Shown here piece after piece: positions 56,901 to 64,000 of a stretch of DNA of 64,000 bases. A program made the position numbers. The DNA comes from Escherichia coli O157:H7 (GTDB taxonomy: Bacteria > Pseudomonadota > Gammaproteobacteria > Enterobacterales > Enterobacteriaceae): NCBI RefSeq assembly GCF_013167455.1, contig NZ_CP038328.1; one strand, 5' to 3'. How positions within the stretch are numbered: the first letter of the stretch is position 1; every line of letters begins with the position of its first letter.

Positions 56901-59900
56901 CCTTACCTCTGAAGGGTTCAGCGACAAATTTATGAGGCAGGCCAGCGCCGAAGCATCATTAATATAATCATATAAGCTAACAGCCAGCGGAGATTCAGCT
57001 TTTGCCAACATAGGATAAAGCTGCTGCAGCCAGACCTTGTGGATTACCGACAGGTGGGAGTAAAGCACGCTGGCGTTATCTGCGGCATCGCTCAGCGTGG
57101 ATGGCTTTGAAAGCAGTTTTTCCATCTGGTTAAAGGCATTGATGTATGCCTCTTTGAACCGGGCAGCACGTTTACCCGTGAAACCCATAGCAAGAAACGC
57201 AAAACCGTCTCGTGTGATTTGATAGCAAGGGAGCTTGCGTGTACCACCGTTCGGTTGATTTACCGAAATCGATGTCTCCGCAAAATTGCGGGCACAAAAC
57301 TCAGGGGAACAATCCAGAGTGCGGATCTTTTTCAGCACATCGTCGTGACGCTTGGAGAAGAAGTTGGCAACAGCCAAAGAAGTGGTAACGGCCTGGCCGT
57401 TGTCAATGGTGATTTCAGGTTGAGTGAGGGCTTGGATCGTAGCCATGATGGCAGCCTCCGTTGACAGTGAAAAACTTCCACCACCGGAAACGCCAATTTC
57501 ACTGGTGGTGAACTGGACGGGGTTGGCGTAACCGGCGTCAACGGAGACCGGCGCACCTTTCGGTGCCCCCGCCCAGCCCACCATAATCTGGATGTGAGCA
57601 AATGCGGACGATAAAAAAGACGCTGGCGCGTCATACATCGCCGTTGACAATTTCAGGACGCCAATCCCGGCACCCGCTTTATAAGGTGCCTGAACAGTGT
57701 AACGTCCCGGAATTGCAGAATCAATATGCTGGTGGTCCTTCACACTCAACAAAATCACGCCTGAATTTCCACAAAGGACTAAAGCACTCATGCGGGTAGT
57801 CTTTGCGAAGATAGATAACGCGCTGTGTTTCTGGCTCCCAACGAATAACATGAACATAAAGTCCTCTTCCGTCACGAAACCAGCGGTTAAGTTCCTGCAC
57901 AACTCGCCCCCCACAGTCAGGTAAAGTTCTCTGTGGTTACTTACAGCCAGGTGATTTGGTAATCTGCATTCATGCCGTAACAACAAGTGTTCAGCGACGC
58001 TGACCACCAGCTGTTGCGACAAACGGTTATTTGCCGTTAAACTGTTCATGCGTTAGTTTCTCCACAACCAGAAGCAATCGACGCCACGACGCCCGGAGCT
58101 GCACACTCGCGGGCGTTACTCTTTTCCGGTGCACAAAAAACACGAAATAACAGTGTTAAATGCTCCTGCCACTTCGCCATTACTTGGTAGCTGTTCTCTT
58201 CGATTTGCTCACGCTCAGCCTGGTCAATAACTCCATCAGCAGTTGCCTTGCGTAAGTACTGGGAATGCTTGCCAATCCATTCTATTGACTCCATCAGCCG
58301 CTGATTAATGTCACCATTGTCAATGTCATCAATGACCACCAGCGGCACAAACACCCCATAACTACGACGGGCTATTGCATCTGTTACATGCCTGGTACCA
58401 CTGGCATCCTGTAAAACCATGGCCCACTCAAGTGGAAAAATTTGATCCCCACCGCTACGCAGTCTGTTATGCAATTGATCTTTTGCTGGGGTGATATCAT
58501 CAGATTTATACAAACCAAGAATTTCTGCTGCTTCCTCATAGCCATGAGGTAAATCAGCAATCGTTCTTCGTATTGCTGCCACCAGCCATGCTGGTTGTTT
58601 ATCAACTTTCCATTCAGGTTCTTTACCCACGGTTAATTCCTCATTTCTGTGGTGTTTTTATGCCGCAGCACTGTTAGTCTTTTGATATAAAGACACGTCA
58701 ACTTTCAGTTTCCCGTTAGTAATTTTTTCTAACTGGTACGCTCGGCCTTCAGGAATAATCTCAGGCCACTCTGAAACAGACGGATGCTTAATACCTAGGG
58801 CTTCGGCGGTTTTACAAACTCCGCCGAAATAATTAATCACGTCGGATTTCCGCATTTCTGTCTCCCGTTAAATTACGTTAAGCAGAAATGTAGGATATCC
58901 AACATACCAATGTCAAGAATCCTACATAGTCATGTGGTAGGATTGCCTACATGATGAACATGAGTGATCGTATTCGCCAAAGGCGAAAAGAACTGAACCT
59001 GACACAACAAGCACTGGCTGATTTGACTGGTGTGAACCGTGTCACGGTTACTGGATGGGAAAAGGACGACTACCAACCAAATGGAGCCAACCTTCAAGCC
59101 CTAGCCAACGCACTTAAATGCGATCCTCTGTGGCTTGTTAGCGGAAAAGGCTCGCCTGAACCAAAGATAAATCTAAAACCTGAAATATTCGCAGTTAAAA
59201 AAGTCCCCCTCATCTCGTGGGTTCAGGCGGGTTCATGGACAATGACGGAGCCTGGTGTCAGGAAAGAAGATGCTGAAGAGTGGGTTTATACTACCGCCCT
59301 TGTATCAGAAATGGCATTTGCACTACGGGTCCGTGGTGATTCAATGACCAATCCCCTCGGCTCACCATCGATACCAGAAGGTTCTATCGTTATCGTAGAG
59401 CCAGATATTATTGATACAGAGTGTATTAACGGAAAAATCGTTGTTGCCCATATCAATGGTGGGCAAGAAGCGACACTCAAAAAATTTGTTGAGGACTGGC
59501 CGAACAGGTATCTCGTCCCACTAAATCCTAACTATAAAACTATTGAATGCGGTGAGAACTGCAGAATAGTTGGTCTTGTCAAACAAGTAATAATGGATTT
59601 TTGACACATCTTCCTCACTATCGCAAAACCGGGGTATCCCCGGTTTTTTTATGAGCCTATCTTTTTATGTAGGATAACCAACATAAACTCTTGACACTCA
59701 CATGTTGGATATCCTACATTTGTTTTTAGAGTTGTGGTGAATGCGCAGGCTGATGCGCGAAAGACATTGCAGCTATTGCGGAAAAGAGCTGTTCGGCGGG
59801 GCAATTAAACGCCCGTGAGAGTCTGAAATAACCGCAAGCCGGAGATCAGCACCGGTCACCACAACAGCCACTGCTTTGGCGGTACCAGTTTGTACACTTG

Positions 59901-62900: not shown

Positions 62901-64000
62901 CATCAGGAGACCGCCCGAAAGGGCGGTAATGAAAAATGGCTGAATTAACCAAATGGCTACAAAACACGATTACCGGAATTGAAACGGTAGTAGACGATAA
63001 ATCGTTTGTATGTGATGAAATAGTATTCAAAATCGATGTGGTTAAAAACGTACTTACCGCATTTAAAGTCGCGCTGGTATCGCTGGAAGCCGAACCGGTG
63101 ACATGGCGATATCGCTACGTGAGAAAAGGCGTTACGAACTTTCAGGAGAAGCCGTGGGTTGGTGACTGGAAATATGTACCGACAAAAGAGGATTGCAACG
63201 ACAGGCCGAACTATGAAATTCAGGCGTTATTCACGGCCCAGCCTGTGCCACTGACACCCGAAGGATTGATTAAAGCGGTGCGCTTCTATGAACAGGTTAA
63301 GAGTGAAAATCCGCCAGTCGAAACCGGAGCATGGAAAGACGCTGTTGACTGGGTGCTCAAAGAGGCTTGTCAGGCTGTAAACATTGGCATCAAAGGAGAG
63401 TGAGATGAACGGACAAATATCAATTGTTCGACCGGGAGCATGTGACGATCGCGAGATACGAATGATTATTCGTCTGGCGATGGGGAAAACAATAACAGCT
63501 CTCATTACTCCTGAAAATCTCGCATTAGCATTAACAGGAAAGTCAGACTTGCCAGTAGAGCTAAAGCTGCGAAATGTTGAGATTAAGGTGAAATAGTTAT
63601 GAATACTCTTACCAAAGAATGGTTACAGAACACGATTACCAGCATTGAGTCAGCACGGGATGAAATACCGTTCGGACTCGATGAAGATCAAAACAACATG
63701 CTTACCGCATTAAAAATTACACTGGCATCACTGGCAGCAGTATCGGATGAACGAGCAGCCTATGAATTATTTATGGAGAAGCGTTTCGGGGAATCTGTAG
63801 ATCGCCGTAGGGCAAAAAATGGCGATAGAGAATACATGGCATGGGATATGGCGCTTGGCTGGATTATCTGGTGTCACCGCGCCGCCATGCTTCAGGGTAG
63901 CCAACCTGTAAGCCAAACTTACAACTTGCCAGAATTAATCGAAGGCATGGAAGTTTCCATTGATATAAGCACTTGTGATGCTGATTTAGGTAATCGCTAT

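Follow-up and report, generated by a model that had tools for sequence, protein, structure and literature searches.

The 64,000-nt stretch of Escherichia coli O157:H7 contig NZ_CP038328.1 analysed here (the window) contains, at 59.7-64 kb on the + strand, the early-left (pL) operon of a lambdoid prophage of the SfV/ST64B/KplE1 (CPS-53) type, integrated in dusA. Downstream of pL lie eight + strand genes, of which seven are complete and the last runs past the window end. All eight products match PHROG families (E-values 1e-18 to 1e-120), while a search of NCBIfam returned nothing above the curated cut-offs. Near-identical genomes annotate the genes as YfdP, YfdQ family, yfdR 5'-deoxynucleotidase, a hypothetical protein, a class I S-adenosylmethionine-dependent methyltransferase, two hypothetical proteins and DUF551; the annotations of phage mEp460 and of the near-identical locus L001 also give these names, including a 3'-5' exonuclease and a PrtN-family protein. 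By synteny with near-identical genomes, a DnaQ-like 3'-5' exonuclease and then a PrtN/TorI-type (excisionase-type) protein are encoded past the window end, and a truncated dusA fragment after the PrtN-family gene marks the end of the prophage. The integrase gene (16746-17843, + strand) adjoins an intact dusA, which places the prophage insertion in that gene; the excisionase gene is at the opposite prophage end from the integrase, beyond the window. We read the region, with a probability of roughly 0.7, as an immediate-early leftward operon in which a host-takeover core, yfdP-yfdQ-yfdR, is joined to an independent tail of accessory genes (morons) that includes an orphan methyltransferase.

This is an ordinary, already known prophage operon. 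Megablast matched the region, at least in parts, in 231 phage records (including Shiga toxin (Stx)-converting phages, mEp460, SfV and 1720a-02) and in 4450 of 5426 complete E. coli genomes. The sequence-only reading had recognized an early-left operon downstream of pL, under repressor control and with accessory genes, and the three operators, the promoter and the eight genes described below bear this out. It had also called the genes uncharacterised, which is wrong for YfdP, YfdQ and YfdR: these are already named, and YfdR has been studied experimentally. Nor is the region, taken there as the best candidate for an undescribed system, such a system: the operon is known and very common, its core with published biochemistry. 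Because the genes are named and common, the region carries little weight as a candidate for a new system.

The immunity region has the classical oL/pL-oR/pR layout. A cI-like repressor gene of the S24/LexA family (58951-59604, + strand; a 217-aa open reading frame (ORF) annotated as LexA family in L001, which is 99.4% identical) is followed by the intrinsic terminator of its transcript (59625-59647, + strand), a perfect 10-bp inverted repeat, AAAACCGGGG/CCCCGGTTTT, and then a T-run. Just past this terminator, a promoter scan found a sigma-70-like promoter, TTGACA-18-TACATT (59691-59720, + strand). A palindromic 18-bp operator, ATGTAGGATAWCCAACAT, is present in three copies in the window versus 0.04 expected by chance, two of them around and overlapping this promoter (oL; 59667-59684 and 59702-59719) and the third on the divergent promoter (oR; 58888-58905); on the strength of these operators we identify the promoter as pL. 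The S24 repressor sets the immunity that silences the operon. With two repressor operators flanking and overlapping pL, the genes of the operon should therefore be silent in a lysogen, where the repressor would hold them off via the three copies of the one operator. Upon induction, transcription would cross a structured leader of 335 nt, and the core and tail genes would then be expressed.

The first gene of the core, yfdP (60062-60424, + strand; 120 aa, PHROG 204), encodes a protein 99.2% identical to K-12 YfdP and belonging to the Pfam family PF27127, an assignment taken from orthologue records. A comparison of YfdP with the PDB gave only a macro-domain match without significance (E 0.19), and that identification was rejected. 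The start previously proposed for the first ORF, at 59876, is a TTG extension on the structured leader, and in the annotation of near-identical genomes YfdP starts at the ATG at 60062. An antisense 134-aa ORF (59846-60250), which overlaps yfdP and the leader and is unannotated in the near-identical loci L001 and L100, was set aside as spurious. The second gene, yfdQ (60490-61314, + strand; 274 aa, DUF2303/PF10065), is 99.3% identical to K-12 YfdQ at the protein level and matches PHROG 210 at 2.6e-120; PF10065 is recorded for 120 of 120 listed YfdQ homologues. The PDB entry 9o7m, named 'YfdQ Protein' and made up of 36 chains of a single 274-aa sequence, gave a match to the window YfdQ at E 1e-44; we found no publication for it. 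The third gene, yfdR (61442-61978, + strand; 178 aa), encodes an HD-domain protein that is 96.6% identical to K-12 YfdR over all 178 residues and matches PHROG 318 at 1e-109. Its Pfam matches, YfbR-like (5.3e-5) and HD_3 (0.0085), cover residues 41-104, it matches PDB 2gz4 (the HD protein Atu1052) at 1.9e-14, and it shows the metal-binding residues of HD proteins (H...HD...D) at H50, H68-D69 and D118. The HD phosphohydrolase recognized earlier was thus a sound call, and, judged by sequence and the same gene order, it is the orthologue of K-12 YfdR.

The order repressor-leader-yfdP-yfdQ recurs in every locus examined, usually with a 177-180-aa HD protein next, and the tail between the HD gene and the exonuclease, excisionase or integrase gene differs in each. 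These loci were those of the phages ST64B, LLS, Eeyore and Salmonella 118970_sal3 and of prophages in Buttiauxella, Leclercia, Cronobacter, Yersinia ruckeri, Serratia, Xenorhabdus, Kosakonia and Acerihabitans. Among the complete E. coli genomes, yfdR is present in 2970 of 5426 (55%). The operons of SfV (orf29-31), ST64B (sb35-37), mEp460 and LLS (gp37-39), of a type discussed in PMC12315714, resemble that of the window in their repressor, leader with its long stem, yfdP, yfdQ and HD protein, and also in having a variable tail, a DnaQ-like exonuclease and an excisionase. Unlike the window prophage, none of these four has the 157-aa methyltransferase; each phage has a tail of its own, and the window prophage has its own specific immunity region and operators. 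The K-12 CPS-53/KplE1 operon, yfdP-yfdQ-yfdR-yfdS-yfdT, has the same gene order, and the window contains YfdS residues 1-42 and a 61-aa segment like YfdT; the K-12 operon differs in lacking the repressor, pL and the leader hairpins, whereas the window has an Eae-like mosaic in place of YfdS, and the methyltransferase and other morons before the YfdT-like ORF.

The function of the core has been approached with the K-12 alleles, by overexpression and in vitro. Noguchi & Katayama (2016; PMC4776307) found that yfdQ-yfdR-yfdS-yfdT in multicopy suppresses the over-initiation of hda-185 and that the minimal suppressor set is yfdQ and yfdR with either yfdS or yfdT, yfdP being dispensable. Purified K-12 YfdR binds domain I of DnaA, dependent on DnaA Phe46, and competes moderately with DiaA and DnaB, and extracts enriched in YfdQRST inhibit oriC replication in vitro (PMC4776307). 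YfdR is a structural homologue of the HD 5'-deoxynucleotidase YfbR, with weak dNMP phosphatase activity and a much lower affinity for nucleotides (PMC4776307). The authors propose that these proteins of an ancestral phage shut down host initiation, and they point out the SfV homologues (PMC4776307). By orthology with K-12, the window YfdR is predicted to be an HD-domain 5'-deoxynucleotidase and a DnaA-binding protein, and both yfdQ and yfdR are intact in the window. The core would act as its K-12 counterpart does: YfdR would bind DnaA domain I at Phe46, competing with DiaA and DnaB, and together with YfdQ and a YfdS/YfdT-type protein would block initiation at oriC, presumably shutting down replication of the host chromosome in favour of the phage.

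The trio occupies a position equivalent to that of the lambda and P22 recombination genes, and LLS-group phages are without a known recombinase (PMC12315714), so that yfdP-yfdQ-yfdR might instead be an unrecognised homologous-recombination module in place of Red/Erf. The 36 chains deposited for 9o7m, a relative of YfdQ, would suit this idea if they reflect a large oligomer, as annealing proteins can form. Such a role nevertheless appears very improbable. A 2025 survey of lambdoid phages states that early-left operons carry the yfdP/yfdQ/HD trio quite often, whether or not a canonical recombination module is present; the trio coexists with complete Rec modules, e.g. in ArgO145, and the authors judge a hidden recombination system unlikely (PMC12315714). 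The YfdQ model moreover does not resemble Rad52, RecT, Erf or Gp2.5 proteins in fold, and the genetics point to DnaA and oriC (PMC4776307).

From 61969 onward the genes of the window form a variable 'ea'-type tail of morons, whose exact protein sequences each occur on hundreds to more than 1000 public contigs. The first of them (61969-62319, + strand; 116 aa, PHROG 614) overlaps yfdR by 10 nt and is named 'Eae protein' in the sources; it has no Pfam match, and shares 88% identity with YfdS over residues 1-42 only, the remainder being unrelated to YfdS. The methyltransferase gene comes next, followed by a 155-aa ORF (62936-63403, + strand; PHROG 660 at 1.4e-47), for which the NCBI annotation pipeline PGAP places the start at 63038 instead, a 63-aa ORF (63405-63596, + strand; PHROG 1222 at 6.5e-41), whose exact sequence is found on at least 1000 contigs, and the YfdT-like mosaic ORF that is cut by the window end (63599-64000, + strand; PHROG 660 and 60). 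The last consists of a shared N-terminal module and then a YfdT-like segment (72% identity to YfdT over 61 aa), and in the near-identical L001 and L100 it is annotated as a disrupted DUF551 gene or pseudogene. The ORFs at 62936 and 63599 had been described as paralogues; this holds for their first 53 residues (49% identity, E 1e-9) and fails for their C-terminal parts, which differ, that of 63599 resembling YfdT. In their common N-terminal module and differing C-terminal parts, they are like the lambda Ea22 and P22 ea-region proteins; the architecture of Ea22 is a mosaic N-terminal segment, a coiled coil and a variable C-terminal domain (PMC10834534). Neighbouring genes in related loci are annotated as ead/Ea22-like and DUF551. 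Unlike the Ea22 family, neither window ORF has a significant Pfam match to Ead_Ea22 (PF13935) or DUF551; indeed, Pfam gave no match at all for ORF 62936 and none of significance for the visible part of ORF 63599. The tails of related loci hold other genes whose annotations are those of enzymes that modify nucleic acids: in Eeyore (L009, 7502-8254), one annotated as 'queuine tRNA-ribosyltransferase' beside a DksA-like zinc-finger gene, and in the Leclercia prophage (L093, 5200-6030), a Dam-type (MethyltransfD12) methyltransferase directly after yfdR.

The fifth gene of the operon (62316-62789, + strand) encodes a small orphan amino-methyltransferase of 157 aa, and its GTG start overlaps the stop codon of the eae-like gene by 4 nt. 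The protein of about this size with FDPPH that had been noticed from the sequence is accordingly real: motif I is D9-x-C-C-G13 and motif IV is D70-P-P-H73. Thirteen positions, including D9 and D70-P-P-H73, are invariant in 55 diverse homologues, and all are kept in the window protein. It matches PHROG 954, 'DNA methyltransferase', at 2e-86 and, among the REBASE-derived PADLOC models, MTase_II (3e-73) and the orphan model oMTase (4e-50); it has no significant Pfam match, and no solved structure is related to it by sequence. The AlphaFold2 model (pLDDT, a per-residue confidence measure, 94.5) is that of a minimal class I Rossmann methyltransferase. The catalytic core uses all 157 residues, leaving no target-recognition domain, and homologues are normally 150-170 aa; those fused to N- or C-terminal extensions gave no clear clue to the substrate. 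The protein belongs to a large family (7470 clusters at 90% identity, about 2080 at 50%), and a tblastn search found relatives sharing 45-65% identity in phages of Streptococcus, Listeria, Staphylococcus, Enterococcus, Corynebacterium, Gordonia, Porphyromonas, Vibrio and Acinetobacter, thus spanning four phyla (Proteobacteria, Firmicutes, Actinobacteria and Bacteroidota), with the gene usually among replication or recombination genes. K-12 YfdM, a Dam-type methyltransferase fragment, gave no BLAST match to it, and M.EcoGII, considered as a relative, was rejected as an unrelated beta-class enzyme.

The most likely activity, going by motifs, model and gene context, would be methylation of an exocyclic amino group in DNA (N6-adenine or N4-cytosine). 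The DNA target is favoured by the usual replication and recombination neighbours and by the precedent of PamA of S. aureus mPhi11, a phage DNA adenine methyltransferase of 141 aa that is active on GATC, which demonstrates that very small phage DNA methyltransferases can work. The window protein is like PamA (NPPY) and the gamma-class M.TaqI in its minimal size, in having (D/N)PP(Y/H) at about residue 65-73 with motif I before motif IV, and in the lack of a restriction partner; unlike PamA, its motif is DPPH instead of NPPY, and it falls in no significant Pfam family. Foldseek assigned the model to class I methyltransferases with probability 1.0, its neighbours being nucleomethylin, Bud23, Trm11 (m2G10), TrmM and M.TaqI. 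The first four of these, RNA methyltransferases, score above M.TaqI, raising the alternative that the enzyme acts on RNA of the host (tRNA or rRNA) or on some other conserved target that is not DNA; the missing target-recognition domain and a conservation across phyla that is unusually high (45-65% identity, 13 invariant residues), as for a universal target, would agree with this. We regard it as unlikely, if worth keeping in mind: template-modelling (TM) scores of 0.5-0.6 reveal only the generic Rossmann methyltransferase core, PHROG and the REBASE-derived PADLOC models group the protein with DNA methyltransferases, its gene keeps company with replication and recombination genes, and small phage Dam enzymes without a target-recognition domain, such as PamA, do methylate DNA. 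There is a similarly small chance that the family's target is something other than an ordinary DNA recognition sequence, perhaps through non-specific or single-strand DNA methylation or on a conserved host RNA. The enzyme would then work on its own, without YfdR, in anti-restriction or as an epigenetic factor.

Whether the methyltransferase instead belongs with the HD protein bears directly on the operon's interpretation, as the two had been suggested to form a nucleotide- or DNA-modification module, e.g. one reshaping the pool of deoxynucleoside mono- or triphosphates while the DNA is modified. The two genes are one apart in one operon, and the overlapping stop and start codons, of yfdR with the eae-like gene and of the latter with the methyltransferase gene, amount to co-translation within the operon. 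The contiguous yfdR-eae-methyltransferase block occurs in 299 E. coli genomes. The small methyltransferase probably lies two genes after yfdR in Kosakonia, to judge by a 160-aa ORF there on the contig that also carries the Kosakonia methyltransferase cluster; an unrelated Dam-type methyltransferase follows yfdR in Leclercia, and the 'queuine tRNA-ribosyltransferase' annotation in Eeyore falls in the same variable region. Against these stand the counts. Among the 5426 complete genomes, 944 carry the methyltransferase gene, which in about two thirds of them is located elsewhere (block in 299 of 944), and some 90% of the yfdR-carrying genomes are without an adjacent copy (block in 299 of 2970). 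In IMG/VR, all 80 loci whose YfdQ is 100% identical lacked the gene in the 4 kb downstream; these came from a YfdQ-alignment scan that returned only 100%-identical E. coli loci and were used for co-occurrence and not for covariation.

The methyltransferase gene also occurs in settings with no HD gene nearby: Qin-like prophages have it in their early-right operon, behind a DUF977 gene, and a P22-like early-left operon has it behind Rad52/Erf-SSB-anti-RecBCD-DUF2737. The relatives at 45-65% identity in Streptococcus, Listeria, Staphylococcus, Corynebacterium, Porphyromonas and Vibrio phages, and the documented partners of YfdR, which are YfdQ and YfdS/T and not a methyltransferase (PMC4776307), likewise speak against a module. 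We therefore consider a joint module highly unlikely. On these counts and contexts, the adjacency is one mosaic arrangement, common in some lineages of the enterohaemorrhagic E. coli type, and the methyltransferase gene appears from its distribution to be an independently mobile accessory gene with no conserved module with YfdR. The overlaps and the Leclercia and Kosakonia cases are weak points in favour of a link, and a tail that takes up DNA-modification morons in general would account for them just as well. In many E. coli strains, Qin-like cryptic prophages (L004, 4001-4357; L005, 3974-4330) hold a truncated 118-aa copy of the methyltransferase, WP_001310834.1, after the DUF977 gene and beside decayed genes and insertion-sequence fragments.

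An early-left position also invites comparison with exclusion genes, which lambdoid phages often carry there, and the prophage could in principle express the operon as a system for defence against phages or for superinfection exclusion. In a preprint, CPS-53 yfdQ and yfdM affected the production of another phage, and the methyltransferase does match PADLOC methyltransferase models. These are only generic models for Type II and orphan methyltransferases, and they are all that the defence-system scan returned, as the other seven of the eight proteins had no match in PADLOC-DB 2.0 at E <= 0.1. Annotations of the four contexts examined place no cognate nuclease beside the methyltransferase. The two operators at pL should keep the genes silent in a lysogen, and lytically growing phages (LLS, mEp460) carry the same trio. 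A defence or exclusion system is thus a doubtful reading, to which we assign little probability.

Several points weigh against a host-takeover core with an independent tail as well. The YfdQRST phenotype comes from multicopy expression, for which the authors allow a possible artefact, and deletion was without effect (PMC4776307). The window prophage has no intact YfdS, its Eae-like protein keeping only YfdS residues 1-42, and the YfdT-like ORF, of which the window holds only a part, has the annotation of a disrupted gene in near-identical genomes, so that the full inhibitory set may be incomplete here. The YfdQ model (pLDDT 75) found no informative fold match in fold libraries that lack 9o7m. 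With regard to the tail, the co-translational overlaps and the Dam-type methyltransferase behind yfdR in Leclercia make a loose functional link between the HD protein and the methyltransferase possible, the best fold matches of the latter include RNA methyltransferases besides M.TaqI, and literature searches, including searches by protein accession, found no experimental work on its family.

The leader between pL and yfdP (59727-60061, 335 nt) is strongly structured (z = -5.85 versus shuffled controls). Its first element, T1 (59879-59924, + strand), is a GC-rich hairpin, GCGGTACCAG/CTGGTACCGC, with a U-run, resembling an intrinsic terminator inside the leader; a T1-like hairpin and U-run with an unrelated stem sequence are found in Leclercia, Kosakonia, Y. 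ruckeri, Eeyore/LLS and ST64B. The second, H2 (59920-60018, + strand), is a long stem of about 25 bp (arms 59920-59944 and 59994-60018) enclosing two small inner stem-loops, and its base includes the U-run of T1. A small hairpin, H3 (60024-60043, + strand), precedes the Shine-Dalgarno sequence GAGGAG (60049-60054); relatives have another hairpin at this position, GGCGG-TGGCAG-CCGCC. The first part of the leader, 59731-59866, matches at 98.5% identity a stretch that is annotated as part of 'lipoprotein Plp' in the P1-like phage-plasmids RCS47 and JL22, and the remainder is common to SfV/Stx-type phages, which sets a mosaic junction at about 59857-59877.

Many Enterobacterales prophages keep the long stem upstream of yfdP, and covariation supports it. 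Over eight aligned relatives, 95.6% of the cells in H2 are paired and five pairs change on both sides, a level reached by 0 of 500 shuffles, with slid controls at only 37-53%; the invariant U.G pairs assign the structure to the + strand RNA. In more distant relatives, conservation was judged from per-sequence folds: Serratia, Xenorhabdus, Y. ruckeri and Acerihabitans keep a stem of 18-30 bp with quite different sequences, and the distance from the stem to the yfdP ATG is 38-53 nt in most lineages and 109 nt in Acerihabitans. MAFFT and RNAalifold over all 13 leaders did not recover the long stem. A covariance model of the leader (R1) recovered only the close group and a weak Y. ruckeri match (E 0.0012), its reach being narrow because it is dominated by sequence. 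The Rfam scan of the leader returned none at the gathering score, only a sub-threshold chance match (E 0.3) on the opposite strand. The leader has been lost in K-12, where the upstream region is replaced, and the Buttiauxella prophage is also without it.

In lambda, the N leader contains a hairpin that is processed by RNase III, and in HK022 the put RNAs act as cis-acting antiterminators. The window leader is likewise a conserved structured RNA between pL and the first early-left gene, with a long double-stranded stem and two adjacent inner stem-loops; it differs in that the element comes after, and not before, a terminator-like hairpin. The leader region presumably has no N gene or boxB. By analogy, the candidate roles are processing by RNase III, as in the lambda N leader, and antitermination in cis, and we infer that the leader RNA probably governs how the entire early-left operon is expressed in phages without an N protein. 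The hairpin upstream of yfdP, as an undescribed cis-regulatory RNA of this operon class, is more likely to be something new than an unusual methyltransferase target is, although the novelty would be a modest one.

Elsewhere in the window, Rfam identifies C4 antisense RNA (57501-57588, 81 bits) and IsrK (57613-57689, 62 bits) on the - strand at 57501-57689, both inside a long ORF (56889-58049) that in relatives is annotated as a gene of the Rha/antirepressor type; this placement suggests a P1/P7-like, c4-type antisense control of the antirepressor. Two further small RNAs, the anti-GcvB AgvB (48641-48702, + strand) and STnc100 (48704-48897, - strand), adjoin a tRNA cluster, Arg(tct)-Arg(tcg)-Met (49667-49918, - strand). 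Beside such a cluster is the stx position of Stx phages, and no ORF of Stx A-subunit size is present at this place. The host flank (1-19400) includes sraL (268-408) and uvrA (4463-7285) and, by comparison with strain CD45, ssb, dnaB and dusA; the integrase gene of CD45 is followed by a DinI-like gene and a gene for an NleG effector (nleG).

The value of the locus lies in what such operons may reveal about the phages that carry them. One matter is how this large group of phages may shut down host replication via DnaA, and what YfdP and the probably oligomeric YfdQ contribute to it. Another is the substrate of a tiny methyltransferase family spread over phages of four phyla, and a third is the conserved leader RNA in phages without an N protein.

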